DNA of 64,000 bases from Verrucomicrobiota bacterium (GCA_049510745.1 JBEKYR010000005.1:32001-96000); one strand, 5' to 3'; positions 25,555 through 44,308 are shown, counted from the stretch's first letter. The notes: a model not told the origin generated them from the letters alone. Numbers and translations: made by a program.

Positions 25555-26970
25555 ATGAAATCCATTGCTGTTCCGCGACGGGTGGCCGCCGCTCTGGTCT
25601 GCTGGCTCCTGCCCGTATTTCTCAACCCGGTTTATGCGCAAGGCGCCGGAACGATCGAGGAGCGCGTCGCCCGATTGGAGGCAGCCAGCCGCCAGGCTCC
25701 GGTCATCAACGCGGGCGATAACGCCTGGGTGCTGGCCAGCGCCGCGCTGGTGCTGATGATGACGGCGCCGGGTTTGATTCTCTTCTACGGCGGGTTGGTG
25801 CGGCGCAAGAACGTCCTGGGCACGATGATGCAAAGCCTCATCTTGATGGCGCTGGTTTCGGCGTTGTGGATGGTGTACGGCTACAGCATGGCCTTCGGGG
25901 AAGGGAACCCGTTTTTCGGAAATCCCTTTCAGTATTTCATGCTCAAAGGCGTGGGGGCCGCGCCAAATCCGGCCTATGCGCCGACGGTCCCGCAAGAGAG
26001 CTTCATGCTCTTTCAAATGATGTTCGCCATCATCACGCCGGCGCTCATCAGCGGCGCGATTGCCGAGCGGATGAAGTTCAAGGCTTACGTCCTGTTCATG
26101 ACGCTGTGGGTGACGTTCATTTATTTCCCGTTGTGCCACATGGTTTGGGGCCAGGGCGGTTTGTTTAATTGGAGCCTGGGCGGCCGGTATCCCGTGCTCG
26201 ATTTCGCCGGCGGCACGGTGGTGCATGTCAGCTCGGGCGTCTCGGCGCTGGTCTGCGCGCTGGTGCTCGGAAAGCGGATCGGTTTCCCGGCCGAGCCGAT
26301 GCCCCCGCACAACGTCGTCTTGAGCCTGATCGGCACGGGCCTTTTGTGGGTGGGCTGGTTTGGGTTCAACGCCGGCAGCGCGGTCAACGCCGGCGCTCTG
26401 GCCAGCAGCGCGTTTGCGGCGACGCATTTCTCGGCGGCCGCGGCCGCGCTGGGATGGGGCGTGACCGAATGGCGCCTCAAGGGCAGGCCCAGCGTTCTGG
26501 GGGTCGCCTCCGGGATGGTCGCGGGCCTGGCCACGATCACGCCCGCCTCCGGTTTTGTGACGATCCCGGCGGCGTTCTTAATCGGGTTGACAGGCGGGGT
26601 GTTTTGCTACATGGCGGTCAGCAAGCTCAAACACGCGTTGCGCTACGACGACTCGCTCGATGTCTTCGGCGTGCATGCGGTTGGCAGTGCGACGGGCCTG
26701 CTGATGACGGGGATATTCGCCAGCGCGGACGTCAACGCGGCCATCGGGAACACCTTCACCGCCGGCGGCAAGGTGATCTCGCTGGCCGGAAGCCCGGCGC
26801 AATTGGGCAATCAATTCCGCGGGCTGATCTTCACGGTGGTTCTCGCCGCCGCGGGAACGTATGTGATCCTCAAGGTGGTCGGCGCGCTGGCCGGCCTGCG
26901 TGTGACGCCGGAGGAGGAGGATTCGGGACTGGACCTGACGCAGCACGGCGAGAGCGCGTACAACGATTAA
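25555..26970 (+). CDS. amtB: Ammonium transporter
   Basis: PGLILFYGG, FQMMFA, DFAGGTVVH, WFGFNAGS, DDSLDVFGVH, GLDLTQHGESAY. Confidence 0.97.
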   Translation: MKSIAVPRRVAAALVCWLLPVFLNPVYAQGAGTIEERVARLEAASRQAPVINAGDNAWVLASAALVLMMTAPGLILFYGGLVRRKNVLGTMMQSLILMALVSALWMVYGYSMAFGEGNPFFGNPFQYFMLKGVGAAPNPAYAPTVPQESFMLFQMMFAIITPALISGAIAERMKFKAYVLFMTLWVTFIYFPLCHMVWGQGGLFNWSLGGRYPVLDFAGGTVVHVSSGVSALVCALVLGKRIGFPAEPMPPHNVVLSLIGTGLLWVGWFGFNAGSAVNAGALASSAFAATHFSAAAAALGWGVTEWRLKGRPSVLGVASGMVAGLATITPASGFVTIPAAFLIGLTGGVFCYMAVSKLKHALRYDDSLDVFGVHAVGSATGLLMTGIFASADVNAAIGNTFTAGGKVISLAGSPAQLGNQFRGLIFTVVLAAAGTYVILKVVGALAGLRVTPEEEDSGLDLTQHGESAYND

Positions 26971-27321
<351 letters not shown>

Positions 27322-27416: not shown

Positions 27417-27686
27417 TCATCCGGCGGCCTGGGTTTTTTGTTCGATTGCCGCGGCGATGGTGTTGACATTCCGCAGGATTACTTTGGCCGCCTCCGCATC
27501 AGAAATCTTCAGCCCGTAATTCTTGTCCAGGGCCACGACCAGTTGCAGCGCGTCCACCGAATCCAGCCCGAGTCCGCCCGGGCCGAACATCGAAATGTCG
27601 TCGGCGATCTCTTCGGCGGTGGTTTGAAGCATGAGGTTTTCAACCAGCAAGCGTTTGATGTGCAGTTTTAGTTCCGGGTTGTTCAT
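27417..27686 (-). CDS. Acyl carrier protein
   Basis: 89 aa, acidic; LGLDSVDAL phosphopantetheine-attachment serine. Confidence 0.95.
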   Translation of the reverse strand: MNNPELKLHIKRLLVENLMLQTTAEEIADDISMFGPGGLGLDSVDALQLVVALDKNYGLKISDAEAAKVILRNVNTIAAAIEQKTQAAG

Positions 27687-28414
27687 TAGAATATGCCGCC
27701 GTCAATTTTGAGTGTGGAGCCTGTGATGTAGCCAGCTTCGCCGCAAGCCAAAAAACGGACGGCGGCCGCCACTTCGCCTGGTTGGCCGAACCGTCTCATG
27801 GGAATCCTCTCGATGGCCCGTTTACGTTCCATCTCGTCCATCGCCAGCGTGGCGGTATCCACGTAACCCGGGCAGACGGCGTTAACCGTGATGCCAATTC
27901 GGGCAACTTCCTTGGCCAGTGATCGGGTCAGCGCCAGCACTCCAGCCTTGGCGGCAGCGTAGTTTGCCTGGCCGGCGGGCGCCAGCAACGCGCTGAGCGA
28001 GGCGATATTGATGATGCGGCCATGGCGCTGGCCAATCATCGTGGGAAGAACGGCCTGACAGCCGTGAAAGACTCCCTCCAAATTAAGGGCGAGAATTTTT
28101 TGCCACGAGTCCAAAGACATGGTGGCCAGCAAGGCATCCTGGTGATCGCCGGCATTGTTGACCAGCACATCCAGTCGCTGATGGCGGGCGAGAATCTCTG
28201 CCACGGCCGCCTTCCATGAGTCAGGCCGGGTGACATCCAACGCAATCGTGCGGCAGCGATCCGGACTTTCCCCGGCAAGTTTTTCGGCCTGATCAAGGCG
28301 CGCGTGAATGCCCAGCCAGATTTGATTTTCCGGGGATTCCTGGAGGAACGACCGTGCAATGGCTTGCCCAATGCCGCCATTGGCGCCGGTGACTAAAATG
28401 ACGCGCGGATTCAT
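27686..28414 (-). CDS. 3-oxoacyl-ACP reductase (FabG-like SDR)
   Basis: TGANGGIG, NNAG, YAAAK, VNAVCPG, IDGG. Confidence 0.93.
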   Translation of the reverse strand: MNPRVILVTGANGGIGQAIARSFLQESPENQIWLGIHARLDQAEKLAGESPDRCRTIALDVTRPDSWKAAVAEILARHQRLDVLVNNAGDHQDALLATMSLDSWQKILALNLEGVFHGCQAVLPTMIGQRHGRIINIASLSALLAPAGQANYAAAKAGVLALTRSLAKEVARIGITVNAVCPGYVDTATLAMDEMERKRAIERIPMRRFGQPGEVAAAVRFLACGEAGYITGSTLKIDGGIF

Positions 28415-29487
28415 AAGGCAAGGCTGCCTGTTTTCGCCGGCAACGACAAATCGGAAATCGTTTGGGCAACACTCTGGAATCGAATACCGATTGCCTGTTG
28501 GTTTGCGCCCACCAAGCTGACATTGGCGGCCCTGAATTTTCCGCGGGCGATCAAATCGCAAGCGGCCACGCATTGCCAGGCCGCCGCAGCCATCAAGCCT
28601 TCGCCCAATACCAATTTTGGACTGATGCGCGGTCCTCTCCAATCAGCCCAGGCGTTGGCTTCAGCCGCATCGGCACGCGGACTCTCATTGAGGCCGTCAC
28701 ACAAGATTTCAGCCTGGTTTTCAGGCGGCATCTGCGCCCGCATTTTTATTGCGGCCAGCTTGCGGTTCACAAGCGCGGTGTAAGGATGCGCGTCGGTGAT
28801 CAATTCAAGCTCAACCCCCGGCGACCATTCTGGATTCAGACTCAAGCAGAGCGCTCCCGCGCCGCCGCTGATGACGGCGCGGTGATCAAAATGCCAGAGG
28901 GCGTCGGCCAGCAGCCAGTTGATTTCCTCCGCGCCCAGGACGAGGCAGGCATCCACCCGCCCCTCCAGCAACCAGTCAATCCCCAAGGCCAGTCCTTGCG
29001 AATAGGAGGAAGGGTCTCCGGCCAGCGTGCAAACCAACGGTGTCTTTTCCAACAGGGCTGCCACATGGCTTGCCGGCGCGGCAAAAACCGTCTCGGGAAA
29101 CAAGAGGGGACTGGCGGTGGCCGCGTCCTGCAGCGCCTCCTGGAAAAAACGGAAGGAAAATTGCACGCAGCCGGACTGCAGGCAGACAATAATTCCGATT
29201 CGGCAATGAACCTCATTGCCCTGCTGAACTGACTTTACGGCCTCCAGCGCCGCCGCGGCCGCGTAATGGGTGATGGGACTGGTGCGCCGCAAACGGGGAT
29301 GGGCCAGAAATGAAGGCCGGACTGCGGGATTGGGAACGGGTCGCATTCGCAATGGCTTTTGCCATCCGGGACGCGTCAGCGGCTGGGTCGGCAGAGGCTC
29401 GTTTTTTGCCAAGGCATCGCGCAGAGCTTCCACAGTCCAACCTGCCGGGCTGACGCTGCCCAAGCCGCATACGAATACCCGGTTCAT
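28411..29487 (-). CDS. Ketosynthase-like chain-length factor (non-catalytic)
   Basis: KS N-terminal fold (GLGSVSPAG, SPLLFPETV, LGAEE) lacking the catalytic Cys (LAGDPSS) and the HGTGT motif. Confidence 0.8.
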   Translation of the reverse strand: MNRVFVCGLGSVSPAGWTVEALRDALAKNEPLPTQPLTRPGWQKPLRMRPVPNPAVRPSFLAHPRLRRTSPITHYAAAAALEAVKSVQQGNEVHCRIGIIVCLQSGCVQFSFRFFQEALQDAATASPLLFPETVFAAPASHVAALLEKTPLVCTLAGDPSSYSQGLALGIDWLLEGRVDACLVLGAEEINWLLADALWHFDHRAVISGGAGALCLSLNPEWSPGVELELITDAHPYTALVNRKLAAIKMRAQMPPENQAEILCDGLNESPRADAAEANAWADWRGPRISPKLVLGEGLMAAAAWQCVAACDLIARGKFRAANVSLVGANQQAIGIRFQSVAQTISDLSLPAKTGSLAL

Positions 29488-30725
29488 GACCACCTCCGCA
29501 TAATCAAGGTGGCATTGACGCCGCCGAAGCCAAACGAGTTTGAAAGCACCACTTTGACCGGAGCCTCTTCCGGCCGGGCGACAATCCGAAAAGAACAGGC
29601 CGGATCGGGGGTCTCGAATGCCATTTCCGGCGGCAGCCATTGTTCGCGCAAACACATCAGGCAAACCACGGCCTCCACCGAACCCGCGCCACCCAGCAGA
29701 TGTCCGATGCCGGCTTTCGTGGAGCTGACTGGCAGTCTGCCTGCACGGTTGCCTGCCCAGCGGCTGATGGCTTTGGCCTCGGCCTGGTCATTCAAAGGCG
29801 TTCCCGTTCCGTGTGCGTTGATGTAGTCAACTTCTTGGGCCGTGATTTGCGCGCTCGCGCAGGCCAGTTGCATCGCCTGGCAAGCCGCGCCTCCGTCCGG
29901 GTGCGGTTGTGTCAGATGGTGGCGATCCATGCTGGTGCCGTAGCCAATGATTTCTCCCAGAATCCCGGCGCCGCGCTTCCGGGCCGATTCATAGGTTTCG
30001 AGTGCAAATACAGCGGCGCCTTCGCCAAGGGCCAATCCGTCTCGATGCGCGTCAAAAGGCCGGCAACTCGTTGGCGACATGACTTGCAATGAGTCAAAGC
30101 CGGCGAATCCCATTTGGCTGAGGGCATCGTAACCGCCGGTCAATACACGGTCGGTTTGTCCATGCCGGATCAGTTCCCATGCTTGGCCAAGGGCGTTGGT
30201 TCCGGAAGCGCAGGCATTGGATACGATGGTGACCGGCCCGGCAAAACCAAGCCAGTCCGCCACCATGGTGGCCTGAGTCTGGGCCTGATAATGCAAAGCC
30301 CGCGTTGGCTGCATTTTTTGCCGGCAGGGCCTATCGACCGCTTGGCGGAAATAATCTTCCCCGAGCGTTATGCCGCCGGCAGTGGTGCCCAAAACCACGG
30401 GCAAATTATCGGAAGATTCCCAACCGGACCGCTGCCAGGCTTCCTGAGCCGCCAGCAGCAACAGGAGGCCGGCCCGATCCAACCGTTGTTGTTGCCGTTT
30501 GGTCAAGTGCATCGGCGGCAGCAGTGACGGCAAATCCACTTCCGCCGCGGTTTTAACCCGCTGGCGGCTGACATCGAAGAGGGTGACGGGACGGAATCCC
30601 GTTTTCCCGGAGCGGAACGCCGCGGCATTCTGTTTCCATCCCAGTCCCAGCGACGTGACAATTCCGGCGCCGGTGATCACCACGCGGGGCGGAGGGGATG
30701 GGAATGGCTTTCTTGGAAACAGCAT
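29484..30725 (-). CDS. Beta-ketoacyl-ACP synthase (FabF-type KS)
   Basis: SNACASG, NAHGTGT, KAGIGHLLG, SNSFGFGG: intact Cys-His-His triad. Confidence 0.95.
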   Translation of the reverse strand: MLFPRKPFPSPPPRVVITGAGIVTSLGLGWKQNAAAFRSGKTGFRPVTLFDVSRQRVKTAAEVDLPSLLPPMHLTKRQQQRLDRAGLLLLLAAQEAWQRSGWESSDNLPVVLGTTAGGITLGEDYFRQAVDRPCRQKMQPTRALHYQAQTQATMVADWLGFAGPVTIVSNACASGTNALGQAWELIRHGQTDRVLTGGYDALSQMGFAGFDSLQVMSPTSCRPFDAHRDGLALGEGAAVFALETYESARKRGAGILGEIIGYGTSMDRHHLTQPHPDGGAACQAMQLACASAQITAQEVDYINAHGTGTPLNDQAEAKAISRWAGNRAGRLPVSSTKAGIGHLLGGAGSVEAVVCLMCLREQWLPPEMAFETPDPACSFRIVARPEEAPVKVVLSNSFGFGGVNATLIMRRWS

Positions 30726-30738
30726 AGTCGTTCAGAAA

Positions 30739-32073
30739 TTACGCCGGCAAGGTTTGCGCGAGCCGGTAAACGCCTTGCCGGAAACCGAGGTTCATCGGGT
30801 AAAACAAATTCTTCCAGGAAGTGGTTCCCCACAGACGTTTGAAAATGGAGGGAATGGAATAGACCTCCTTGAACACACGAAAATACCCCTCCGCCAGTTG
30901 GTCGGCGTTCAGGGTCTTGGGTTTGAAAACCACATGGTTGGCATCGTAAAGCGACCAGTCGCGGGTCAGAATCCGATCTTCCTGGACCAGCCGTTTGTGC
31001 AGCCGTGTGCCGGGATAAGGCGTGAGAATGGAAAAGTAGGTCACTTCGATTTTTGCCTCCAAGACAAATTCAAGCGTGCGGTCGAAAACCCCCTCGTCAT
31101 CGGTGTCAAAACCAAACACGAATGAGCCGTCAATGCCGATGCCGTGGTCGTGGATTTTTTGAACGATCTCGGAATACTGATTCGGGCGGTTCACGCGCTT
31201 GCCCATCGCGGCAATGGTTTCCGGGGAGAGTGATTCGAAGCCCATGAAGAGTCCCTTGCACCCGCTTTGCCGGCAAAGTCTCAGGATTTCCGGATCGCTG
31301 GCAATGTTGACCGAGGCTTGGCCAAACCAATTGAGCTTCAAATCGGCGATGCGGATCAAAAACTCCCGGGCGTAGGCGCGGTTGCTGATGATGTTGTCAT
31401 CAATGAAAAACACGCAGTTTTTGAGCGAGAAAGCGCCCCGATTGAAAGGAGTCAGCCCCCGCAGTTCCGCCAGGACTTCCTCCTGCGGCCGGTTGCGATA
31501 TGTGCCGCCAAAGGCGCTGGTCACGGCGCAAAATTCGCAGTCAATTGGGCAACCCCGGGTGGTTTCGACAAAATGAACCGGCAGATATTTTTTGTTTTCG
31601 TATAGCTTCCAGTTGGGCTGCGGCAGCCCCGCCAGCGCAGGCAGGCCGTCCCGATGAAAGTAGAGGGGCTTGAGCCGCTGGAGATCGAAATCCCGCAGCA
31701 ATTCCGGCCACAGCCCTTCGGCTTCCCCCACTACCACACTATCGCAGTGAGCCTGGGCCTCTGCGGGCAGGCAGGAGACGTGCATCCCGCCCATCACCAC
31801 CTTGATGCCGCGCCGCCGGAAATGATCGGCAATTTCATAGGCGCGCTGGACGGTGGTGGTCATCGCGGTGATGCCCACCAGATCGGCCTCCTCGTTCAGG
31901 CCCAACCGCTCGACCTTTTCGTCCACAATCGTGATCTGCCAGCCGGGTGCCGTCAGCGCCGCCACTTTCAGCAGGCCGAGGCACGGCATGCGAAAAAAGA
32001 ATTTGTCGCCCATCAGGCTTTTCTTTGAGAGCGGGGAGATGAGCAACAATTTCTTCATGGCATTACTTTCCAT
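30739..32073 (-). CDS. B12-binding radical SAM protein
   Basis: N-terminal cobalamin-binding-like domain (VVMGGMH, GEAE); RGCPIDCEFC; TPYPGT. Confidence 0.93.
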   Translation of the reverse strand: MESNAMKKLLLISPLSKKSLMGDKFFFRMPCLGLLKVAALTAPGWQITIVDEKVERLGLNEEADLVGITAMTTTVQRAYEIADHFRRRGIKVVMGGMHVSCLPAEAQAHCDSVVVGEAEGLWPELLRDFDLQRLKPLYFHRDGLPALAGLPQPNWKLYENKKYLPVHFVETTRGCPIDCEFCAVTSAFGGTYRNRPQEEVLAELRGLTPFNRGAFSLKNCVFFIDDNIISNRAYAREFLIRIADLKLNWFGQASVNIASDPEILRLCRQSGCKGLFMGFESLSPETIAAMGKRVNRPNQYSEIVQKIHDHGIGIDGSFVFGFDTDDEGVFDRTLEFVLEAKIEVTYFSILTPYPGTRLHKRLVQEDRILTRDWSLYDANHVVFKPKTLNADQLAEGYFRVFKEVYSIPSIFKRLWGTTSWKNLFYPMNLGFRQGVYRLAQTLPA

Positions 32074-33472
32074 TTCCGTTCACGCCCCGCGGCCAGAGGC
32101 GTTGAAGGGTTGAAAAATAGCTCCATAACGGGCCGACGGCGCCCTTTTTGCGCAACCGCTCGATCAGGCTTGTGTAGGCAGGCGCCGGGTCGCCCACAAT
32201 CCAGTTGGGTGCCAGCCGGGCAAATTCCGTGAGCCGGGCAAAGACCCCGTCAACCGAAAGACCGGGCGCGAGATAATACGTGGGGCGGAGCAAATCGCTG
32301 TCCCGGCCGATGCAGCCTTCGGCCAAAGCCTGCTGACTCAGGGGCGTGCCCGGATATATCCGCATCCCCACCACCGCCATTATCACCGCGTTCTTGATCC
32401 GCAAGGACGCTTCGAACCCAAGCCGCAGGGTTTCCATGGTTTCGCCGGGGCCGCCGCTGATGAGGAAATGGCAGAAATCAATGTTTTCCCGGTTGGCCAG
32501 CTCGCTGGAATGCAGGATGTCGTCGAAGATGAACCCCTTTTGATAAGCCGCCAGAACCTCATTGCAGAAACTGTCCGAACCAAACTCAATGTGCGCCAGC
32601 CCGGCCCGCTTCATCAGCTTCATCAACTCCGGCGTCAGTCCTTGCGGGCGCAGAAAACAGCCCCAGGCCAGCTTCGCGTTGCGGCGCAGAACGGCCTCGC
32701 AGATTTCCGTGACGTGCTGTTTGGAAGAGTTGAAGACAGAATCCACAATGAAAGCATAGCGGGCGCCCAGCCTCTGCAGTTGCTCGAACTCGCCGGCCAC
32801 GGCTTCAGCGCAGTGATGGCGGTGATGTTTGCCTTCAATGACCGGATAGGTGCAATAACAACAGTGGCAGGCGCATCCGCGCTGCGTCTGAAGGTTGAGC
32901 ATTCCGCTCGCGCGCAGGTAGTATTCCGCGATGGAGGCCGGGCGGTCGGCTTCTTCCAACGTTGGCCCGCCCGGGCTGCCGGCCCGCGGGTTGAGGACAA
33001 CATTCCCGTTTTCACGGTAAACCAGGCCGGGGACGCCGGAAAAGCTGTGTCCGTTGTTCAGGGCGGCGAGCAGGGAAACAAAACCCGCCTCGCCTTCGCC
33101 ATAGATGCCATAATCCGCTCCGGACATTTCCAGCAACTGTCGGGGAAAAATGCTGAACCCGCTGCCGCCCACCACCACCGGGCACTTGATTTTCCGCCGC
33201 AGGGTTTGACCCAGCCAGGAGAGGTTGTCAAAAAAGGTTTCCCGTTTGCGGATGATGACATCGTCAATGTTGCGGACGGAAATGCCGACGACATCGGGTT
33301 GGTAACGGGCTAAAACAGCCTCGAGGCTTTCCCCGCCGGCCAGACTGTCGGCCCAGAGGGTGCGGTGGCCGGCCCGGCGCAGGGCGGAGTTCAAATAGGC
33401 CAGCCCCAGCGGAAACACCGGGTCGGGCGTGGTGCAGCGATTGTTGCTGATCAGGAGAACATTGCCGCCCAT
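32063..33472 (-). CDS. Lipid-biosynthesis-type B12-binding radical SAM protein
   Basis: PDPVFPLGLAYL, ISVRNIDD, GGSGFSIFP, QTQRGCACHCCYCTYP, RIYPGT. Confidence 0.9.
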   Translation of the reverse strand: MGGNVLLISNNRCTTPDPVFPLGLAYLNSALRRAGHRTLWADSLAGGESLEAVLARYQPDVVGISVRNIDDVIIRKRETFFDNLSWLGQTLRRKIKCPVVVGGSGFSIFPRQLLEMSGADYGIYGEGEAGFVSLLAALNNGHSFSGVPGLVYRENGNVVLNPRAGSPGGPTLEEADRPASIAEYYLRASGMLNLQTQRGCACHCCYCTYPVIEGKHHRHHCAEAVAGEFEQLQRLGARYAFIVDSVFNSSKQHVTEICEAVLRRNAKLAWGCFLRPQGLTPELMKLMKRAGLAHIEFGSDSFCNEVLAAYQKGFIFDDILHSSELANRENIDFCHFLISGGPGETMETLRLGFEASLRIKNAVIMAVVGMRIYPGTPLSQQALAEGCIGRDSDLLRPTYYLAPGLSVDGVFARLTEFARLAPNWIVGDPAPAYTSLIERLRKKGAVGPLWSYFSTLQRLWPRGVNGNGK

Positions 33473-33703
33473 GAGAATCCTGCCTCCACCATCGCGCGGA
33501 CAAACACTCGCCGGCCGAAAAGTTCTCTGGCGCCACAGGCCGCCTGTTCATGAAAGGCGGTTTGGTCTGCCCCGGAGGCGGTCAAATCCATCGCTGTTGG
33601 GAAATAACCCATGCGCGCCAATGGTAGCCAGCGAAGCGTCCGCGTTGCAAGCGCAACGGGCATTTCTCTTGGGTTTTCCCCGGTCGTCCGTTAGGCTGAT
33701 GTT

Positions 33704-34474
33704 GTGGATCGGCTTGAAAATCACGTCGCCGTTATTCCTTGTTTGAACGAGGCGCAAACCATCGCTTTATTGGTTCACTCGGTTCGCCGCCACATCCCCA
33801 ACGTGGTGGTCGTGGACGACGGTTCAAGAGACAACACCGCCAAACTGGCGACCGAGGCCGGCGCCTGGGTTGTTTCCCATCCCCAAAATTTGGGGAAGGG
33901 CGCGGCCGTGACAACGGGTTTGACCACGGCGATGCGGACAGGATTCGACCGGGCCTTGCTCATGGACGGCGACGGACAGCACCAACCTGGCGACATTCCC
34001 GCGTTTGTCCAGAAGGCGGAAGCGACCCAGGCTGCCTTGGTGATCGGCAACCGCATGCATGAGGCCCTGTCCATTCCCTGGTTGCGCCGGCGGGTCAACC
34101 GTTGGATGAGCCGGCAAATTTCGCGCCGGGCCGGAAAATATTTGCCCGACACCCAGTGCGGCTTCCGTCTTGTGGATTTGAGAATCTGGGCGGCGTTGCC
34201 CTGCCACGCCCGTCGTTTCGAAATTGAATCGGAGATGCTGATCACCTTTCTTGACGCCGGTTGCCGTGTTGAGTTTGTTCCGATCCAGGTCATTGGCCGG
34301 GCCGCGCACAGTCACATAAATCCGTTGACCGATACGTGGCGATGGTGCAAGTGGTGGCGCAGTCTGCCCGCCGGCAGAAGGATTTTGGATTCATTTTCTT
34401 CTCGCCGCGGCCTGGAGAGCAACAGTTTCAAATTGCATGAACCCCATCCCCGGCAGATCCAATCCAGCGAGTAG
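33704..34474 (+). CDS. Glycosyltransferase family 2 (DPM-synthase-like)
   Basis: IPCLNE, VDDGSRD, NLGKGAA, DGDGQH, DTQCGFR. Confidence 0.93.
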   Translation: MDRLENHVAVIPCLNEAQTIALLVHSVRRHIPNVVVVDDGSRDNTAKLATEAGAWVVSHPQNLGKGAAVTTGLTTAMRTGFDRALLMDGDGQHQPGDIPAFVQKAEATQAALVIGNRMHEALSIPWLRRRVNRWMSRQISRRAGKYLPDTQCGFRLVDLRIWAALPCHARRFEIESEMLITFLDAGCRVEFVPIQVIGRAAHSHINPLTDTWRWCKWWRSLPAGRRILDSFSSRRGLESNSFKLHEPHPRQIQSSE

Positions 34475-34487
34475 TTGCTCCCGTCGT

Positions 34488-34868
34488 ATGCGGACCTGGG
34501 GCATCAAGCTGATCTGGCTGGTGCTGGCCGGCATTTTGCTTGGTTGTTGTTACAAGGAGGCTGTCCCCAGACTTTATCGCCCCGAAACCAAAGCCGGATT
34601 CTGGCTGGGCACCGTTCATGGCTTTTTGATGCCCGTGGCGCTGCCCAATCTGCTGGCGGGAGAGGACGTGCCGATCTTTGCCGCCAATAACACGGGCCGC
34701 AATTACAAGCTCGGTTATATCGCGGGCATCAATCTTTGCGGCTTGATTTTCTTTGGCATGGCCTTCCGTCCCAAAAAGGAGGAGAATCCCGCGCCGAATG
34801 GATCATCACCTCAATATATCCAGCCTCGGAAAACTTCGATCACGTCCACCCGGCCGCCCGCCCAGTAA
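34488..34868 (+). CDS. Small membrane (lipo)protein, hypothetical
   Basis: Lipobox-like LLGC; AGFWLGTVHG and YKLGY hydrophobic segments; alternative start at 34437. Confidence 0.7.
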   Translation: MRTWGIKLIWLVLAGILLGCCYKEAVPRLYRPETKAGFWLGTVHGFLMPVALPNLLAGEDVPIFAANNTGRNYKLGYIAGINLCGLIFFGMAFRPKKEENPAPNGSSPQYIQPRKTSITSTRPPAQ

Positions 34869-35545
34869 TGATTGCGCGGAAATTGAAAAGTCTGTTCCGC
34901 GCGGCGATAAATCAACTGTGTTGGCTGGCCAGGCTGATTGGGATCATAAGCGGCAAAGAGGATCTCCGTTTCAGTTTCCTGATGGCCAAACAACACGACC
35001 CCATGATTGATCGTCAACCGGGGAAAGCGCACCAGGTGGACAATGGGAATGGCTCTCCGGCCAAAAGATTCGAGCAACTGCCCCGAGACGTTTTTTTGAT
35101 TCCGCCGCGAAATCGGAAAGACCATCCGCCAATGGCTGCGCAATGCGTAGGACTGCCACGCCCCCCCGCACTCCGCTTTGACCAGCGTTTCCTCAGCCCG
35201 GCTGAAGGCGCGCAAGCCATCGTAGCCCGGGAAGACGATCTTGTCTGGTTCCCTGCTGGGTTGCCGGGGGCTGCGGCTAACCACTTGCCGGATGAGCCGG
35301 CGATACGAATCCGCCGCGACCGGAGGTTGATGGCCCTCAAACCGGGCGTGGTAAAAGAACTGGCGCGCGCTTCGAACCATGACGAAACAACGATGGGCGA
35401 ATTGCGGCGGGGGATTATTCTTCAGCGTCGTCATGGAACCGGTGGCCGAATCGAGCCGGTATTCCCAGACCAGTTCGTTGGCGAACGAAAAAGTGTCCCG
35501 TTCAAAATCAAACTGTCGCGCTGGCTCGGCGGGCGGTAAAAACAT
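34811..35545 (-). CDS. Hypothetical protein with a papain-like Cys/His/Asp pattern
   Basis: FSFANEL...HRCFVM...INHGVVLFG...AAYDPN; start reassigned to ATG 35545. Confidence 0.7.
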   Translation of the reverse strand: MFLPPAEPARQFDFERDTFSFANELVWEYRLDSATGSMTTLKNNPPPQFAHRCFVMVRSARQFFYHARFEGHQPPVAADSYRRLIRQVVSRSPRQPSREPDKIVFPGYDGLRAFSRAEETLVKAECGGAWQSYALRSHWRMVFPISRRNQKNVSGQLLESFGRRAIPIVHLVRFPRLTINHGVVLFGHQETETEILFAAYDPNQPGQPTQLIYRRAEQTFQFPRNHYWAGGRVDVIEVFRGWIY

Positions 35546-35584
35546 GCTTGCGCCGCAAGGTAGCCTTGCGATACGAAACTGTAA

Positions 35585-36892
35585 ATGCTTTACGAGCGCT
35601 GGCGGCAGATCGTCCGGGAACGAAGCGGGCAATGCGCCTTGCGTGACCTTTCTTCGGACCGTCAGTGGACTTTTGCCGAAATAGCGCGGCTTGTGGAAGG
35701 CACGCCCGCAGCCTCCCGGAAGGTAATTTTTCCCCGCGGCCACGACGCCGGGTTCGTATTTGCCGTCTTGCAGGCGTGGCGTTCCAATTCCGTCGTCTGT
35801 CCCATGGAGGCCGACCAAACAACCGCGCAAGTGATGGGCCTGCCACCGGCACACTGCCTCCATCTCAAAACCACCTCCGCCACGACGGGCGCTCCCCGCT
35901 TCGTCGCCTTTACGCCGGAACAACTGGCGGCGGACGCGGAAAATATCGTGTCCACAATGGGATTGCGTCCGGATTGGCCCAACGTGGCTGCCATCTCCCT
36001 GGCGCATTCTTACGGCTTCTCCAATCTGGTTTTGCCGCTCCTGTTGCATGGCATTCCACTGTTTATCGCGCCATCGCCTTTGCCGGAAATCTTTCGCCAA
36101 GCGATAAAACGCGCGATAGTTTCGGATCTGACCCTGCCAGCCGTGCCGGCCTTGTGGCGGGCCTGGCATGCCGCCGGGGTCATCCCGGCCCAGGTTCGCC
36201 TGGCCATATCTGCGGGAGCTCCCTTGCCGCTGGCGTTGGAAACGCATGTTTTTTCCGCCACTGGAATCAAGATCCATAATTTTTACGGCTCTTCCGAATG
36301 CGGCGGCATCGCCTATGATGCAACTCCGGTTCCCCGCACGGAGGAAAGCTGCACCGGGAAGCCGATGCGAAATGTTGATTTGCAGATTGGAGACGCCGGC
36401 TGCCTTGAAGTGCGCGGCAAGGCGGTTGGAGAAACTTACTGGCCAACGCCGTCCAGTGTTTTGAAGGCGGGCTGTTTTCAGACAAGTGACCTGGCCGAGA
36501 TCATCAACGGCGAGGTTTATCTTCGTGGCCGGCTCGCCGACCAGATCAATGTGGCTGGCCGGAAGGTATCCCCTGCCGCCATCGAACGAGCGTTGCTGGA
36601 GCACGACCAGGTTGCCGACTGCCTGGCCTTCGGCGTGCCCAGTGCCGATGCGGACCGCGCTGAAGTAATCGTGGCCTGCATCGTGGCAAAGTCACCTCTC
36701 ACAGGAGAAGAGTTGAAGCAATTTTTGTTGAGAAAAATTCCGGCCTGGCAAATTCCGCGCGAATGGTGGTTTGTGGATTCGCTGGACTGCAACCACCTCG
36801 GCAAAATTTCCCGCGCGCAATGGCGGCAGGATTTTCTCAAACGGAAGGAATCGGTCAGTTCCCATTCTGATCAGAAAGGCATTCTGCCGTGA
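35585..36892 (+). CDS. AMP-forming acyl-CoA/acyl-ACP ligase (ANL superfamily)
   Basis: TTSATTGAPR, HSYG, SAGAP, FYGSSECG, TSDLA, GR..DQINVAGRKV, GKISR. Confidence 0.9.
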   Translation: MLYERWRQIVRERSGQCALRDLSSDRQWTFAEIARLVEGTPAASRKVIFPRGHDAGFVFAVLQAWRSNSVVCPMEADQTTAQVMGLPPAHCLHLKTTSATTGAPRFVAFTPEQLAADAENIVSTMGLRPDWPNVAAISLAHSYGFSNLVLPLLLHGIPLFIAPSPLPEIFRQAIKRAIVSDLTLPAVPALWRAWHAAGVIPAQVRLAISAGAPLPLALETHVFSATGIKIHNFYGSSECGGIAYDATPVPRTEESCTGKPMRNVDLQIGDAGCLEVRGKAVGETYWPTPSSVLKAGCFQTSDLAEIINGEVYLRGRLADQINVAGRKVSPAAIERALLEHDQVADCLAFGVPSADADRAEVIVACIVAKSPLTGEELKQFLLRKIPAWQIPREWWFVDSLDCNHLGKISRAQWRQDFLKRKESVSSHSDQKGILP

Positions 36893-36897
36893 ATTGT

Positions 36898-37344
36898 TTA
36901 TTTAGGCTCGGAACCGCCCAAGGTCAGCCCGGCGGTCAATACTAAACGGTCCCGGACGTGGATTTGCGCCCGGGCCTGAACCAAGCCGGCCAGCCGGCCA
37001 ACGATAAGGGCTTGGACCCTCATCGTTTCGCCCGGACACAATGTCCCAAGGATTTTCACCGCGCTCAAGGCAGCCAGTTTCAATTTTCCCAAGGGGGGGA
37101 TGGACGGATCGCTCTGGGCGACGATTCCCGCGAGTTGTGCCGCGGCTTCAACAAGGAGAACACCAGGGAAAATCGGATCGCCGGGAAAGTGCCCTCGAAG
37201 AAACGGTTCGTCGCCGCGCACCCGGTATTCGCCAACGCCTTCCTTGCCGGGCGTCAGGCTGATCAGCCGGTCAATAAAACGGAACTCCGGGCCGTGAGGC
37301 AACGTCTGCAACGCGGTTTCGAGCATGTCGGCAGGAGGGTTCAT
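36898..37344 (-). CDS. 3-hydroxyacyl-ACP dehydratase (FabZ-like)
   Basis: LPHGPEFRFIDR, GHFPGDPIFPGVLLVEAAAQ. Confidence 0.93.
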   Translation of the reverse strand: MNPPADMLETALQTLPHGPEFRFIDRLISLTPGKEGVGEYRVRGDEPFLRGHFPGDPIFPGVLLVEAAAQLAGIVAQSDPSIPPLGKLKLAALSAVKILGTLCPGETMRVQALIVGRLAGLVQARAQIHVRDRLVLTAGLTLGGSEPK

Positions 37345-38024
37345 TGCCGGAGCGGTTCTACGACGGTGAAATTCGTATCGAACTTGGATTCAAACAGGCT
37401 CGCCTTGAGAGGCGGGTTAATGATCCCGTTGGTAAACTCGTTGCGCATGATTGAGCCATCACTGAATCTTAATTCGGTCGAAGCGGGCGAAAAATCGTTG
37501 GTGTGAACCGTGACTGAGATTTCACTCATGAACTTGCGGGCGGCCTGGCTCCTGGGCTGCAGGTTCACCTGAACAATGGCGTTGGTCTGGATGACCGACA
37601 GCAACCGGAAGTGTGAATCCAACTCCGCCCGGTTGCGCGGGAAACTGGCGTCCAACAAGGCCAGCGCATCGCGCCAGGGGCCGGATTGATTGCCGTTGAG
37701 CGGATATTTTTCCACCCGCTTGAGCCTCGGATAAATGATGAATAATTGGTCCGGCTGCCGCAGCGCAATGGTCTGCGCCGGTTGTCCCAATTCCCAACGG
37801 AACCGGTTCGGCATGGCCACCCAGACTTTGCCGGTGGAAACCAGCGGTTGCGAAAGTGTTTTCAGAGCGCGGGTCTCGACAACATCCGCCGACCAGGTGA
37901 GGAGGTTCGTCTGGGCGGCAATCCACTGGTCTAAAAGCTTGTCGGATTGGGCTCCTGCGGTCATGGCAACCAAGCTGAACGCGAGGCAAAACCAGGCAAC
38001 TGGGAAACTGGGTTGAGGTTTCAT
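37341..38024 (-). CDS. LolA-like periplasmic lipid/lipoprotein carrier
   Basis: Signal peptide; LVSTGKVWVAMPNRFRWE LolA-fold motif. Confidence 0.85.
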   Translation of the reverse strand: MKPQPSFPVAWFCLAFSLVAMTAGAQSDKLLDQWIAAQTNLLTWSADVVETRALKTLSQPLVSTGKVWVAMPNRFRWELGQPAQTIALRQPDQLFIIYPRLKRVEKYPLNGNQSGPWRDALALLDASFPRNRAELDSHFRLLSVIQTNAIVQVNLQPRSQAARKFMSEISVTVHTNDFSPASTELRFSDGSIMRNEFTNGIINPPLKASLFESKFDTNFTVVEPLRQ

Positions 38025-41000
38025 GGGGTCGGTCGAACACCGGAAGAATTCCCTGCGGACGGCTCCGGCCAGATGGGAACAAAATGAAACCATTGGTCGG
38101 CATGTTGTTGAATTCCCGGTTCAAATGCACGCATGATTTCCTGCGTGAGCTTGCCGCGCCCCTCTCGATTGCCCAACGACTGGCGGTCGTATTCAAATTC
38201 GGCCAGCAGACGGGCTTCATATCCCTGGTTGGTCCGCACGATGGTCACGCCCACGAGGGCGCAACCGGTTGCCCGGGCGACTTCCGATACCGCCAACGAG
38301 GCTTGAAAGGGCCGCCCAAACAGCGTGACCGTTACCGACTTAACGCTCGGCGGCCGGTCAATCAACAGCGCGACGGTGGCGCCGTCCTGCAATCGCTTGA
38401 GTATCTCCACAAAGGCAAACGGTTCGTCGCCCACCACAATGGTCTCGATTCCCCAGCGCGCTCGCGACTGGCGGCGCATTTCAGTGAATCCTTGGCCGGG
38501 TTCGGCTTGCGTGACGGTGATGAGCTTGACTCCGCGTTGCACCAGCAGCGGTCCCCCAATTTCCCAGTTGCCCAAATGCGGAGTAATCAGCAGCACGCCG
38601 CGCCCGCGCTGCCGGGCCTTTTCATAGATGGCCCAGTCGGAATCTTTTGTGAGCCATGTGTTCACTCCGATGCCGCCTTCATAACGCCACAGGTCCTTCA
38701 TCTTGATGGCGAACTGACGGAAAAGCTGGTGAGCCGCCTTTTCCGCCGCCCTCTGATTGTAATTCAACACGGGGAGCAGATTGTGAATCACGACCTCCCT
38801 CCTTCGGGTGTGAAGGCGGTAATAAATCTCCGCCACCCACAAGCAAGTTTGCTCCAGCGCTGCGCCGGGCAAAATCCTCACGACCCTCAAACCCAACCGC
38901 CACACTGCGGCCGAATAAAATCTTGAGGGAGCAGCCGGATGGCTCGTGGAGTCTGGTTGCTTTTTCCTTTGCAGACAACTCCACCATGCCGGAAGCAGAC
39001 CGACGGCAATCAACATATTGGCGGCGATACCGGCCGCACAGACCTTGCCCAAGCTGGCCATGCCCGCGTTGCCTGACCACGCCAAAGACCCAAACCCGGC
39101 AATCGCCGTTCCGCCGCACAGCAGCAGGGCGCGTCCAATGGAACGACGAACCGCTCCGAGGTCGCCGCCGTGCCGCCGCAAAGCCAGTTGCATGAAAATG
39201 CTGTAGTCCACACCCGTGCCCAATACCAGGGGCACAGCCATCAGGTTGAGCAGATTCCACGACCAGCCTGCCAAAGACATCGTGACCAGCAGGCAAAGAC
39301 TGCTCAACAGCAAGACCCCCAGCCCCAGCAGCACTTCCGCCAGCCGGCGAAAAGTCAGCCACAACGAACCCAGGACCAGCGCAATCATCGGTGTCACCAC
39401 CAGCCACAAACGGCTCTGCACACGCTCAAGTGTGACGCCTCCCAGCAATCCCCAACTGGACAGCAAAACATTTTTCTCCTCCAACTGCCTGGAAAGTTCA
39501 GCCAGCGCGCCCGCGGAGGCTCCATGGCTTGCCGGATAGACCAAACCCATGACAAACCACTCATTGCCGGAACGGGCGACAAATCTTTTTAACAACCACC
39601 GGCTCATGTCGTTTGTCGGCCAAAACACCTCCCGGCAACCGCCCGCCCGCGTCCATGTTTGCAGCAACTCATCGGTTAGGAACAGCGCGTTGGTTTCGAA
39701 GCCTTCCCGCACGGCGGCGGCGCGCAACGCCGGACCTTGGACTCCGAGAGCGGCGGCGGCGGCACGGTTGGCCTGCTGATATTCCACCCGCGGCCACATC
39801 ACTGTCGGCAGCAAATACCCGCTGATGGTCCGGTTTGAAACCGCCCGCTGCAAAAGGCCCTCGGTCCGCGAAAGGATTTCAAACACTTCCCGCTCCTGAT
39901 GGCCGGAAATGATCACCCAAAGCGGATCCTGGGGAATGCCGATGGCCGCCGTCATTTCCTCCAATGCGGCTTCGGCTTCGCTGTGCTGCGGCTTAAGCGC
40001 GTTGGCCGATCTGTCCAGCGGAGGAAGATGAAACGATAAAGCCAGGCTGGCACAAGCCGCCAGAACGAGGGTGACGATCACCGCCCGGCGGCTGTAGGAA
40101 TGATCGGCATGGCTGCCTGCCACAAGGGTGTTTTCACGGGGCGGCATCAGATAAGACCACCAGGGCTGACGAGGCTGATTTGCGCCGGACTTCCAGCGCG
40201 CCGGAAAAAGCGGCGGCAGATAAACCAGCACCATGACCAAAGCGGCCAGCGCAACGCCGATGGCCACCAGCGTGCCCAGTTGGGCCAGTCCCGGCAGCCC
40301 GCCTAAATTCAGAACCAGAAAGGCGCTGATGGTGGTGATGGCAGCCCAAAGAATGCTGGGGGAGATGGCGCGCCGGATCTCCGAAATGCTCAGTTGCGGG
40401 TGGGACAACGCTTCCTGATAATGGACCACGGCATAGTCCACCGCCAACCCCAGCAGCACGGCGGCAAACCCCAGGCTGATGACGCTGATCGTTCCCAAAA
40501 TGAGGCTTCCCACCGCCACGGTCGCAATCAGAATCACAGCCAGCAACGCCAACAGCCACAGCATGGGCAGCCAGCGCCGATGCATGAGCCAGAACAGCGC
40601 CGCAATGATCAGCGCCGTGCCAGTGACGGAACCGCTTAAATCGCGCCGCATGCTTCCGGATATTTCCGTCACAAATGCCGGCCGCCCTGTATAACGCACG
40701 GCCACACCCGCCCAATCGGTCTGATTTGACCTGACATCCGCGACCGTTTTCCGGAGCGCTTGCAGCCAGGCCGAGTTGGCGGTGTAAGTGGTCAGGTCAG
40801 GCCGCGCCGCCACATACAAAACGCGAAGTGTGCCATCCGCCGAGGCAAACATTCTTTGTCCTTGTTCAGCCGAAGCTCCGCTGAAATTTGTCAGCACGGG
40901 CACACTCATCAAATTGTAGGGATCAAATGACCGCACGGCGATGTCCATCGGAGAGAGCGATGTGGCGAGGACTTCCCGGGTTTCGGCCAGCACGGAGTGA

Positions 41001-41392
41001 AGGCGGCCGGCGGACAACCGATTGGTCAGCTCGCCAAAAATCAAGGGAGGCTGGTTGAACCACAGATAGCCCACAATTTCCGCCGCCTGCGACGCATTTT
41101 CCATCCACGGCGGCTGCCAGGAGACGGCGGCGACCAGATTGGATTCCCCGCGCAGACGGGTTGCCAGAACTTCAGCCAGACGTTCAGCCCTGTCGGCATC
41201 CGCGGCCCGCAGCGTGATGATCAGTTCGCGCGCGTTGGCGAAGTGCTGTTGATAAATTTTCAAACCCCGCACCGCCGCCTCATCCGGCGGCAACAAGTCA
41301 AGGACCTCCGTGTCAATTCGAAGCCGGCTCAAACCGAATGCCAATGGCACGAACAACAACAGCCACCCCAAGCGGTTCCACCGGCCTTTCAT
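38021..41392 (-). CDS. MMPL/RND-family lipid exporter fused to a C-terminal LpxL-like acyltransferase
   Basis: Two TM bundles (GLAVDYAVVH, GTGVDYSIF); C-terminal LITPHLGNWE, ALLIDR, QWFHFVPIW. Confidence 0.9.
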   Translation of the reverse strand: MKGRWNRLGWLLLFVPLAFGLSRLRIDTEVLDLLPPDEAAVRGLKIYQQHFANARELIITLRAADADRAERLAEVLATRLRGESNLVAAVSWQPPWMENASQAAEIVGYLWFNQPPLIFGELTNRLSAGRLHSVLAETREVLATSLSPMDIAVRSFDPYNLMSVPVLTNFSGASAEQGQRMFASADGTLRVLYVAARPDLTTYTANSAWLQALRKTVADVRSNQTDWAGVAVRYTGRPAFVTEISGSMRRDLSGSVTGTALIIAALFWLMHRRWLPMLWLLALLAVILIATVAVGSLILGTISVISLGFAAVLLGLAVDYAVVHYQEALSHPQLSISEIRRAISPSILWAAITTISAFLVLNLGGLPGLAQLGTLVAIGVALAALVMVLVYLPPLFPARWKSGANQPRQPWWSYLMPPRENTLVAGSHADHSYSRRAVIVTLVLAACASLALSFHLPPLDRSANALKPQHSEAEAALEEMTAAIGIPQDPLWVIISGHQEREVFEILSRTEGLLQRAVSNRTISGYLLPTVMWPRVEYQQANRAAAAALGVQGPALRAAAVREGFETNALFLTDELLQTWTRAGGCREVFWPTNDMSRWLLKRFVARSGNEWFVMGLVYPASHGASAGALAELSRQLEEKNVLLSSWGLLGGVTLERVQSRLWLVVTPMIALVLGSLWLTFRRLAEVLLGLGVLLLSSLCLLVTMSLAGWSWNLLNLMAVPLVLGTGVDYSIFMQLALRRHGGDLGAVRRSIGRALLLCGGTAIAGFGSLAWSGNAGMASLGKVCAAGIAANMLIAVGLLPAWWSCLQRKKQPDSTSHPAAPSRFYSAAVWRLGLRVVRILPGAALEQTCLWVAEIYYRLHTRRREVVIHNLLPVLNYNQRAAEKAAHQLFRQFAIKMKDLWRYEGGIGVNTWLTKDSDWAIYEKARQRGRGVLLITPHLGNWEIGGPLLVQRGVKLITVTQAEPGQGFTEMRRQSRARWGIETIVVGDEPFAFVEILKRLQDGATVALLIDRPPSVKSVTVTLFGRPFQASLAVSEVARATGCALVGVTIVRTNQGYEARLLAEFEYDRQSLGNREGRGKLTQEIMRAFEPGIQQHADQWFHFVPIWPEPSAGNSSGVRPTP

Positions 41393-41877
41393 GGCTCGAG
41401 GTACCCTTCCAGGGTTTCGCCTGATTTGGTGTTTTCCAACTTCCAGCCGCCGTCCGGCTTCCGGGAAAAATGCAAATCGTCCGGCAGGGATTCGCCAGCC
41501 AAAGCCGCGCGCAGGCAGAGCCAGAGAAAGCGGGGCGGAGGATTGCCTTTTCCGGCAAAACTCATTTGCCTGGGTGGAAACTCAACGAGCCAATGGGTTG
41601 AGCTGGTTTGCGCCAGCACGAGCGGAATCGGCGTTTTGACAAACTCAACCGAGCATCGCCCGTCCGGATGACTGGCCACAACCACTTCGCCGCCAAGTTC
41701 CGGATAATTGCGGCCCGGACGCCAAAGGGCCTGTCCTTGCTGCACGTGCCAACCCGGACCGGAAGCGGTGAACAACGAATCGTTTGCCGCCGTCCGACAA
41801 CCGGTCGAAAGAGAACTGCCTGCCAGCAGCGACAGCCCAACCCCAAAGCACAACCATCGGTGTTCGCATGAACCCAT
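41389..41877 (-). CDS. Hypothetical lipoprotein
   Basis: Lipobox LSTGC; beta-rich; 4-bp overlap with the MMPL gene. Confidence 0.75.
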   Translation of the reverse strand: MGSCEHRWLCFGVGLSLLAGSSLSTGCRTAANDSLFTASGPGWHVQQGQALWRPGRNYPELGGEVVVASHPDGRCSVEFVKTPIPLVLAQTSSTHWLVEFPPRQMSFAGKGNPPPRFLWLCLRAALAGESLPDDLHFSRKPDGGWKLENTKSGETLEGYLEP

Positions 41878-42948: not shown

Positions 42949-43024
42949 TGGGGTGGCCAACGGGACTCGAACCCGCAACAACAAGCTCCACAAGCTTGGA
43001 CTCTACCATTGAGCTATAGCCACC
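42949..43024 (-). tRNA. tRNA-His (GTG)
   Basis: GGTGGCTATAGCTCAATGGTAGAGTCCAAGCTTGTGGAGCTTGTTGTTGCGGGTTCGAGTCCCGTTGGCCACCCCA: G-1, C73, anticodon GTG, TTCGA loop, encoded CCA. Confidence 0.97.
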
Positions 43025-43773: not shown

Positions 43774-44301
43774 ATGAACGTAAACCTGATGGCGCCCGGC
43801 GCGAAAACCGCATTTACCGCCGAATCGCTGCCCGACCACCCGCTGTTCCACGGCTTGACGGGGCGGCATCGGCATACCCTGGCCGAATGCTCAATGCCCG
43901 CCAGCTTCGAGCCGGGGGAAATAATCGTCGAACTGGGGGAACCGGCCAATTGCTTTTACTTGGTGATCAGCGGGCTGATCGGCTTGGAATCCCTCGGGGC
44001 GCCTTCACCCTTGCGCGTTCAAACCATTGGTCCGGGCGATATTCTGGGCTGGTCGTGGCTTTTCTCACCGTATTACTGGCATTTCAACGCCATCGCCGAA
44101 GTGCCCACCGAGTCGATCTTCTTCTACGGCAGCCGTTTGCGCCAGGAATGCGACCGGGACCATGACCTTGGCTACGAGTTGTTCAAGCGGATGTCCCATA
44201 TCCTCGTCACGCGCTTGCAAGCCACCCGCGAGAAATGGATTGAAGCGGCTCAATTGAACCCCCCGCGCAACGGACTCGCAGCCGATTACCTGATCATTTA
44301 A
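43774..44301 (+). CDS. Stand-alone cyclic-nucleotide-binding (Crp-type) domain protein
   Basis: HPLFHGL, FEPGEII, FYLVISG, GDILGWS; no HTH. Confidence 0.85.
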   Translation: MNVNLMAPGAKTAFTAESLPDHPLFHGLTGRHRHTLAECSMPASFEPGEIIVELGEPANCFYLVISGLIGLESLGAPSPLRVQTIGPGDILGWSWLFSPYYWHFNAIAEVPTESIFFYGSRLRQECDRDHDLGYELFKRMSHILVTRLQATREKWIEAAQLNPPRNGLAADYLII

Positions 44302-44308
44302 CCGTCCT

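Follow-up and report, generated by a model that had tools for sequence, protein, structure and literature searches.

A verrucomicrobial type II ketosynthase cluster with optional B12 radical SAM enzymes and a candidate outer-membrane export set

The described systems closest to the gene cluster analysed here are the aryl polyene (APE) loci and the clusters linked to ladderane lipids in anammox bacteria, together with TsrM, a cobalamin (B12)-binding radical S-adenosylmethionine (SAM) enzyme that resembles one of its products. The cluster occupies positions 27417..41877 (14.5 kb) of a 64,000-nucleotide stretch of DNA from a Verrucomicrobiota bacterium (GCA_049510745.1 JBEKYR010000005.1:32001-96000), referred to in full as the window, and comprises 14 intact genes and one stub. 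In the literature consulted (PMC2649909, bioRxiv 10.64898/2026.05.19.726425, PMC13459092, PMC4790861, PMC8253772, PMC8992657, PMC12931638, bioRxiv 10.1101/2021.07.10.451909 and bioRxiv 10.1101/2020.12.19.423268), the APE lipid is a polyene carried on GalNAc-phosphate-glycerol, ApeL, ApeM and ApeN form the export set of E. coli, and ApeB is of the kind that decorates the head group. With confidence somewhat better than even, we read the present cluster as encoding a dedicated type II assembly line for acyl chains and, with it, a private export set for the outer membrane, which together would make an aryl-polyene-lipid-like glycolipid whose acyl chain is C-methylated by optional B12 enzymes. By title or the start of the abstract we found no study of this verrucomicrobial cluster, and no paper combining aryl polyene, radical SAM and cobalamin or combining HydE-like with radical SAM and biosynthesis, in searches that left most subscription journals outside.

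When set beside the apeA-R genes of E. coli CFT073 and Xenorhabdus doucetiae, the locus has in common with them an acyl carrier protein (ACP), a ketosynthase (KS), a chain-length factor (CLF), a ketoreductase (KR), a dehydratase (DH), an adenylating enzyme and the lack of an enoyl reductase, as well as a GT2 glycosyltransferase, an LPLAT-type acyltransferase, an MMPL transporter and LolA-like and LolB-like proteins. All six APE core classes (KS, CLF, ACP, DH, KR and MMPL transporter) are present, each in single copy, and eight cluster proteins have E. coli Ape counterparts at 23-38% (ApeE, ApeQ, ApeR/O, both domains of ApeJ, ApeI and ApeM). The original prediction had called the cluster ladderane/aryl-polyene-related on the strength of an ACP, FabG, an active KS, a Cys-less CLF, FabZ, a ligase, two B12 radical SAM proteins, GT2, an MMPL-acyltransferase and a LolA-like carrier, and every one of these is present. 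Pfam and NCBIfam matches identify the ACP, FabG, KS, FabZ, AMP-binding ligase, GT2, LolA, both B12-binding radical SAM proteins and the MMPL-acyltransferase fusion, whereas the CLF and the papain-like, LolB-like and small membrane proteins have no Pfam match. That inventory had omitted a papain-fold protein and a truncated HydE-like radical SAM gene, and the "lipoproteins" it named in the plural come down to the one at 41389-41877, the 126-aa protein at 34488 resembling instead a small membrane protein. The APE part of the label holds for the core classes and fails at the level of the ApeO, ApeR and ApeC families.

Evidence for a dedicated chain-building line comes from the KS (29484..30725, minus strand, 413 aa) and the CLF (28411..29487, minus strand, 358 aa), a KS paralogue with Pro at the Cys position (GDPSSY). 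The catalytic Cys172, His305 and His342 of the KS are kept in 40/40 homologues. The genome has a housekeeping FabF on contig C7 that scores 633 bits against a cut-off of 494, whereas the cluster KS reaches 375 bits and falls below it. In a KS tree the 22 rows of cluster KSs group in a single clade (Shimodaira-Hasegawa-like approximate likelihood ratio test, SH-aLRT, 99), which stands apart from the genome's FabF, from ApeO and ApeR of E. coli, and from the KSs encoded in the TIGR04072 clusters that other classes of the phylum carry. This is a quick maximum-likelihood tree in which ApeO sits on a long branch, one row with a stop is omitted and no anammox KS is among the rows; within that range the phylogeny proposed with the original prediction separates the KS from both FabF and ApeO. 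Identity of the cluster KS with the housekeeping enzyme is ruled out by its score below the FabF cut-off together with its different clade. The KS and CLF are further predicted to form a heterodimer, with a complex score of 0.96 against 0.00 for the best of three controls, agreement between runs in at least 98% of contacts and a partner pLDDT (predicted local distance difference test) of 90. The mark applied to such scores is passed by 116/157 solved complexes and 2/215 mismatched pairs, and the pass may in part reflect likeness to solved KS/CLF pairs. The KS's distinctness from FabF and the predicted pairing together bear out the claim of a dedicated type II KS/CLF system.

The remaining chain-building genes fit the same scheme. 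The ACP (27417..27686, minus strand, 89 aa, PF00550) is 38% to E. coli ApeE, with the motif LDSVDAL kept in 50 of 57 matches; the FabG/ApeQ-like 3-oxoacyl-ACP reductase (27686..28414, minus strand, 242 aa) is 36% to ApeQ and reaches 247 bits against TIGR01830, below the cut-off of 298; and the FabZ-like dehydratase (36898..37344, minus strand, 148 aa, PF07977) keeps its His and Glu motifs in 24/24 matches. In the mechanism that we favour, a short AMP-forming acyl/aryl ligase (35585..36892, plus strand, 435 aa, PF00501 and PF13193) would load a carboxylic acid starter, aromatic or otherwise unsaturated, on the ACP, and KS-CLF, FabG and FabZ would elongate it, with no enoyl reduction step, into a conjugated chain. 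The ligase, whose A10 lysine is kept in all 32 matches, is a candidate for this loading role.

A number of results count against an APE-type product. The KS scores 306 against PRK09185 (cut-off 407) and 262 against PRK09116 (cut-off 470), cut-offs that ApeO and ApeR clear with 556 and 779; ApeC was not recovered by the CLF profile (E 0.1 in a set of 18 proteins); and the ligase gave no BLAST match to ApeH, the synthetase type that loads the 4-hydroxybenzoate starter of APE systems. Compared with apeA-R, the KS, CLF, ligase and LolB-like proteins belong to different families, the locus has one KS, one ACP and one DH where apeA-R has two, B12 radical SAM enzymes stand in the stead of ApeB, and no ApeD, ApeK, second KS or second ACP occurs in the window. 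An aromatic starter is likewise unproven, with acyl and aryl CoA ligases giving near-equal scores among the ligase's PDB matches and no chorismate lyase found in the genome. As for the polyene, anammox Cluster I as published also lacks an enoyl reductase, and a sequence on contig C2, which we take to be FabI-like by its motif, could encode an enzyme reducing the chain in trans from elsewhere in the genome. The absence of an enoyl reductase from the cluster, as originally reported, is correct, and because it is accompanied by this FabI-like sequence on another contig, we infer a polyene rather than observe one. Membership of the ape family is ruled out by KS, CLF and ligase sequence, and the cluster is best described as one that appears to work like an APE lipid system while lying outside that family.

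The FabI-like gene also opens the way to a product that is no polyene at all: KS-CLF would make a short or medium chain, saturated or partly unsaturated after reduction in trans, the B12 enzymes would methyl-branch it, and the chain would acylate an envelope glycolipid or lipid A. The fused acyltransferase of lipid A/phosphatidylinositol mannoside (PIM) type is in keeping with this, as is the structural neighbourhood of the CLF. In single-sequence PDB searches the CLF matched solely 9S5H_C (E 1e-6), and 9S5H_B ranked second for the KS; in profile searches the Thermus-type FabF entry 1J3N came first for both, and ordinary FabF scored at least as high as 9S5H. Because 9S5H_C carries Val where the Cys would be, together with an F-x-x-T-V segment, in line with the residues given, one number off, in a preprint on the anammox enzyme, we infer that 9S5H is the anammox FabF heterodimer and its chain 9S5H_C the FabF-mut subunit; the code is not in the preprint's main text. 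That heterodimer is described as preferring C8 probes, yet a polyene KS is named there as the anammox KS's nearest structural homologue. Against a lipid A acceptor stands the private MMPL-LolA-LolB set, which would be needless for it. Lipid A has its own transport route. The optional halogenase-like and methyltransferase genes of relatives, described below, also suit an aromatic or conjugated substrate better. We regard a non-polyene product as unlikely, though the likeliest of the alternatives.

On the aryl-polyene-lipid-like reading, the chain would next be released or transferred by the papain-fold Cys-His-Asp protein (34811..35545, minus strand, 244 aa, DUF8321/DUF8322), whose presence is a further difference from apeA-R. 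Its Cys54, His182 and Asp202 (alignment numbering) are invariant in 14/14 rows, and its model, of middling quality (pLDDT 72), aligns with papain-clan proteases as the top folds (Z 7.3, root-mean-square deviation (rmsd) 3.0, 88 residues aligned), the alignment beginning at this invariant Cys. Foldseek returned nothing for this model at E 0.001 or better, and the fold call rests on the VIA Z of ~7 together with the invariant triad. The protein has no hydrophobic segment, and in intact clusters its gene always stands head to head with that of the ligase. Given that the cluster is without the ApeK thioesterase, we propose it as a candidate acyl release or transfer enzyme.

Attachment of the chain would fall to the GT2 glycosyltransferase (33704..34474, plus strand, PF00535), making a sugar-phospholipid acceptor, and to an acyltransferase domain that acylates it. 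The GT2 is of the polyprenyl-phosphate-sugar synthase type and 30% to the N-terminal domain of ApeJ; its best NCBIfam model is PpgS (polyprenyl-phospho-GalNAc synthase), at 116 bits, far below the cut-off. The lipid-A-type acyltransferase is fused to an MMPL/RND exporter (38021..41392, minus strand, 1123 aa, PF03176 and PF03279), the N-terminal part being 23% to ApeM and the C-terminal part 27% to the acyltransferase domain of ApeJ, with the HLGNWE motif kept in 21/21. The two domains that E. coli fuses in ApeJ are thus split here between GT2 and the MMPL fusion, the acyltransferase riding on MMPL rather than on GT2. Delivery to the outer membrane would be by MMPL, the LolA-like periplasmic carrier (37341..38024, minus strand, 227 aa, PF03548, with a weak match to LolA2_flexi) and the 162-aa lipoprotein (41389..41877, minus strand), in which Cys27 is nearly invariant. 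The model of this lipoprotein (pLDDT 85) has LolB proteins as its best Foldseek matches (E 1.5e-4 and 2.7e-4) and aligns with E. coli LolB at VIA Z 9.6 (rmsd 3.3, 117 residues). Its profile did not find ApeN, of which, on the predicted fold, it may be a functional analogue, completing an MMPL-LolA-LolB set like ApeM/L/N. Attachment to a glyco- or phospholipid and delivery to the outer membrane, both foreseen originally, therefore gain support from domain content and the predicted LolB fold.

We then turn to the two B12-binding radical SAM genes, both of which carry CxxxCxxC. The search of each against the lipid-biosynthesis model TIGR04072 that had been suggested at the outset was positive for rSAM1 (32063..33472, minus strand; 389.2 bits, cut-off 360) and negative for rSAM2 (30739..32073, minus strand, with a DUF4070 tail; 70.4 bits), which is recognised by Pfam and meets no NCBIfam cut-off. 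The next-best models for rSAM1 are BzaD (201 bits) and TsrM (146 bits), and its best PDB match is TsrM at E 7.5e-34, the next match lying at 8.5e-18. With TsrM (the tryptophan C2-methyltransferase, PDB 6WTE) and BzaD it shares an R-N-x-D motif, in which Arg67 aligns with Arg69 of TsrM; the equivalent of this arginine, under the cobalt, is kept in 72 of 74 aligned homologues, a few of which are duplicates. According to published accounts, Arg69 weakens the methyl-cobalt bond of TsrM for sp2 methylation, Glu273 keeps SAM off the cluster, and BzaD has a proposed methylation of an sp2 carbon. Because its nearest relatives are TsrM and BzaD and the Arg69 equivalent is retained, the most likely reaction of rSAM1 is methylation of an sp2 carbon, in the head group or the chain, rather than ring formation. 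Of the original phrase "methylated or cyclised", the first half accordingly gains ground and the second becomes the less likely. Some features stand against so direct a transfer. rSAM1 is ~100 residues shorter than TsrM and has Val246 at the position of Glu273, whose equivalent occurs in 2/74 homologues, neither adjoining this cluster, so that the polar mechanism of TsrM need not be common to it; by sequence its unique iron site is free and it may still be able to make a 5'-deoxyadenosyl radical. One review also holds that such enzymes cannot yet be classed by structure.

The place of these enzymes in the pathway is clarified by their distribution, which we surveyed in one sample of 201 genomes of the host's order, mostly incomplete, so that a gene not found is not thereby absent. 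The CLF occurs in 98 of these genomes and the papain-like protein in 107 (including 92/98 CLF genomes), TIGR04072 (E 1e-60 or better) in 38, rSAM2 orthologues in 12 and an intact HydE-like radical SAM protein in 80. From the CLF, TIGR04072 and rSAM2 counts it follows that the B12 enzymes tailor the product and do not define it; the idea that they are the cluster's defining feature is weakened, as most genomes with the chassis do without them. rSAM2 is present only where rSAM1 is (12/12 genomes), which suggests that it acts on the rSAM1 product, and in our scheme it would modify that product further; it has no Arg69 equivalent. In L001 and L003, loci 84-95% identical to the window over shared genes, rSAM2 is cleanly missing, start codon to start codon. 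Relatives carry SAM methyltransferases and a flavin halogenase-like or CrtI-like enzyme in or beside the cluster. Halogenases are an enzyme kind that decorates aryl head groups. By analogy, the slot-filling methyltransferases and halogenase-like enzyme would match the kinds of enzyme acting on such head groups, and we count them in favour of the aryl-polyene-lipid-like product. A search for CobS in the genome, which is 94% complete, found none, though other B12-binding proteins are present, so the host probably takes up B12 (no search was aimed at uptake genes).

Between rSAM1 and GT2 lies the stub (33484..33663, minus strand), the remnant of a HydE/PylB-like radical SAM gene of which the initial 60 codons survive and the rest is deleted; the remnant is 80% identical to the matching part of the L001 gene. 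It ends ahead of CxxxCxxC, the intact L001 gene encodes 361 aa, and no intact HydE-like gene was found in this genome. The truncation point differs among the window, L003 and L006, and in L001, the sister of L003, the gene is intact. Separately, in L002:8760-9870 it is frameshifted near its start, by decay or assembly error. This pattern raises the question of whether the radical SAM enzymes of the slot supply the starter or head group, with the HydE-like enzyme and TIGR04072 as alternative routes and the HydE-like gene dispensable once rSAM1 is present. Among the 98 CLF genomes, TIGR04072 occurs in 21/30 without a HydE-like gene and in 12/68 with one, and neither occurs in just 9/98. This mutual exclusion is strong in the raw counts (Fisher p 1e-6) but not significant over independent pairs once relatedness is allowed for (5 independent pairs, median p 0.5; FastTree, 61 rows), and we keep it as a rival reading only. 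For this table rSAM1 orthologues (n=26, at least 51% identity) came from retrieved loci, and G094 and G188 were assigned to a second TIGR04072 subtype by family code alone. Twelve genomes have both genes, the unrelated folds make the same reaction unlikely, and absences stem from incomplete genomes; alternative starter routes are accordingly improbable. Tailoring of the chain or head group by the B12 enzymes remains the reading we prefer.

A ladderane connection enters through TIGR04072, a family named rSAM_ladder_B12 and tied to an unsolved pathway with no assigned reaction. Compared with the type II fatty acid synthase-like TIGR04072 clusters of Kuenenia (kuste3335-3352) and Desulfotalea psychrophila, the locus has in common a TIGR04072 member and second B12 radical SAM gene, a non-canonical FabF, ACP, FabG, FabZ, glycosyltransferase and CoA ligase; it differs in having no phytoene-desaturase-like gene and in the optional status of its radical SAM genes. 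With anammox Cluster I (kuste3603-3608; amxFabF2/amxFabF-mut heterodimer) it shares a KS with an inactive paralogue, here a predicted heterodimer, an ACP, FabZ, a B12 radical SAM enzyme and the F-P-x-T-V tunnel segment of 9S5H_C; it lacks the phytoene dehydrogenase (PDH)-like gene and has FabG, ligase, GT2 and export genes in addition. The cluster contains no phytoene-dehydrogenase-like gene; the CrtI-like protein of one relative (L105) has no match in the genome at 1e-8, and the genome's best PF01593 match is on a contig other than that of the cluster. The host, too, is set apart from anammox bacteria by its Verrucomicrobiota relatives and its haem-copper oxidases (no search was aimed at hydrazine genes). 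Membership of Cluster I is ruled out by the missing phytoene-dehydrogenase-like gene and the non-anammox host, and the ladderane link is limited to the TIGR04072 label and weak CLF similarity.

That link nevertheless underlies the proposal that the B12 enzymes cyclise the chain into cyclopropane, cyclobutane or ladderane-like rings, as proposed for the anammox clusters, which we think very unlikely. The family name, the rank of 9S5H in single-sequence searches, the free iron site of rSAM1 and a relative (L105, L044) with the same KS-CLF beside a CrtI-like gene and other B12 enzymes all lean towards it, and GrsA/B, B12 radical SAM enzymes described as cyclising archaeal lipids, provide a precedent. 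The missing CrtI-like gene, the parity or advantage of ordinary FabF over 9S5H in profile searches and the dispensability of the B12 enzymes speak the other way, as do published reports that Desulfotalea with a syntenic cluster made no ladderanes, that no Cluster I protein is experimentally tied to ladderane synthesis, and that Kuenenia genes expressed in E. coli yielded no ladderanes, with solubility problems. Its boldest form, a new class of outer-membrane lipid in Verrucomicrobia in which a TsrM-like TIGR04072 enzyme, its iron site freed for radical chemistry, and a partner B12 enzyme close rings on a polyene, has an equally slender chance; if true, it would place ladderane-type chemistry outside anammox bacteria, with natural plus/minus variants of each enzyme for comparison.

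Whatever the reaction, the setting is favourable for assigning it. Here TIGR04072 is part of a compact chassis with a single KS, the host carries genes for aerobic respiration, and the relatives form a natural series (HydE-like gene only; with rSAM1; with rSAM1 and rSAM2; rSAM1 alone) from which each enzyme's mass shift could be read by comparison. Because this plus/minus series exists among close relatives, the function of the family is open to direct test. From the chassis, an outer-membrane lipid that might serve as a biomarker would also be expected in roughly half of the order, which is abundant and for the most part uncultured, and the predicted folds propose roles for two unannotated families, DUF8321/8322 as a papain-fold enzyme and the 162-aa lipoprotein as a LolB analogue.

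The host belongs probably to the order Limisphaerales, as judged from its named relatives: the closest loci are Verrucomicrobiota metagenome-assembled genomes, two of them so named. The full gene order LolB-MMPL-LolA-FabZ-ligase-papain-small protein-GT2-[slot]-KS-CLF-(FabG)-ACP recurs in 13/134 mapped loci (L003, L007, L009, L011, L020, L027, L079, L080, L083, L086, L096, L117 and L144), many of the 134 being cut by contig ends or a 20-kb limit and a few being duplicates. Within the two minus-strand runs, neighbouring genes overlap by 1-11 nt at most junctions, and because of these overlaps and the recurring order the cluster is beyond chance. The plus strand carries GT2, the small membrane protein and the ligase, the minus strand all other genes, and the cluster is more than one operon; promoter and terminator scans were at chance level. 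FabG is absent from the cluster in some relatives (e.g. L010-L012), and in many other genomes of the order the genes are scattered. CLF profile matches were found in 10/301 genomes of the phylum, this one counted, some flanked by papain-like, HydE-like, halogenase-like and ligase genes. The small membrane protein (34488..34868, plus strand, 126 aa, two hydrophobic segments) is conserved in syntenic loci, its cysteines not being kept in L002; it has no Pfam match, and its Atlas leads are all under 0.9.

Further observations concern relatives of the cluster. Solitary rSAM1 orthologues, 51-63% identical and far from the KS-CLF of the same genomes, occur in L013-L015, L022-L026, L029, L035, L037, L039, L043 and L045. 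The TIGR04072 clusters of other classes of the phylum (L064-L077) are larger, include as many as three KS/CLF pairs and have an adjoining B12 enzyme with the odd motif CRFxCFPCC; the three-KS clusters differ from the present one by their separate KS clade. A chassis variant (L105:4385-12369 and L044:2121-9987 of G180; also L046, L050 and L107) has a second ACP and ligase besides a CrtI-like flavoprotein, a phosphodiesterase-like protein and an FAD oxidoreductase, and its B12 radical SAM enzymes are different ones; of the gene sets seen it is the nearest to the anammox clusters.

The cluster proteins are 84-93% identical to those of L001, whose flanking genes are only 57-80% identical to this genome, and in two same-genus genomes (L137 and L138) the cluster proteins reach 46-70%. 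These values are a hint that the cluster as a whole has been exchanged laterally among members of the order. The G+C content of the cluster is 59%, against 60% for the genome. On the ACP side the cluster is bounded by an amtB-glnB pair (25555-27321, plus strand) that is not kept beside it in relatives. A tRNA-His gene (42949-43023, minus strand) lies ~1 kb upstream of the cluster, and at 44001-48000, where an 834-aa membrane protein is encoded (44910-47414; its sole match, to DUF2254, is weak), the G+C content falls to 49-52%.

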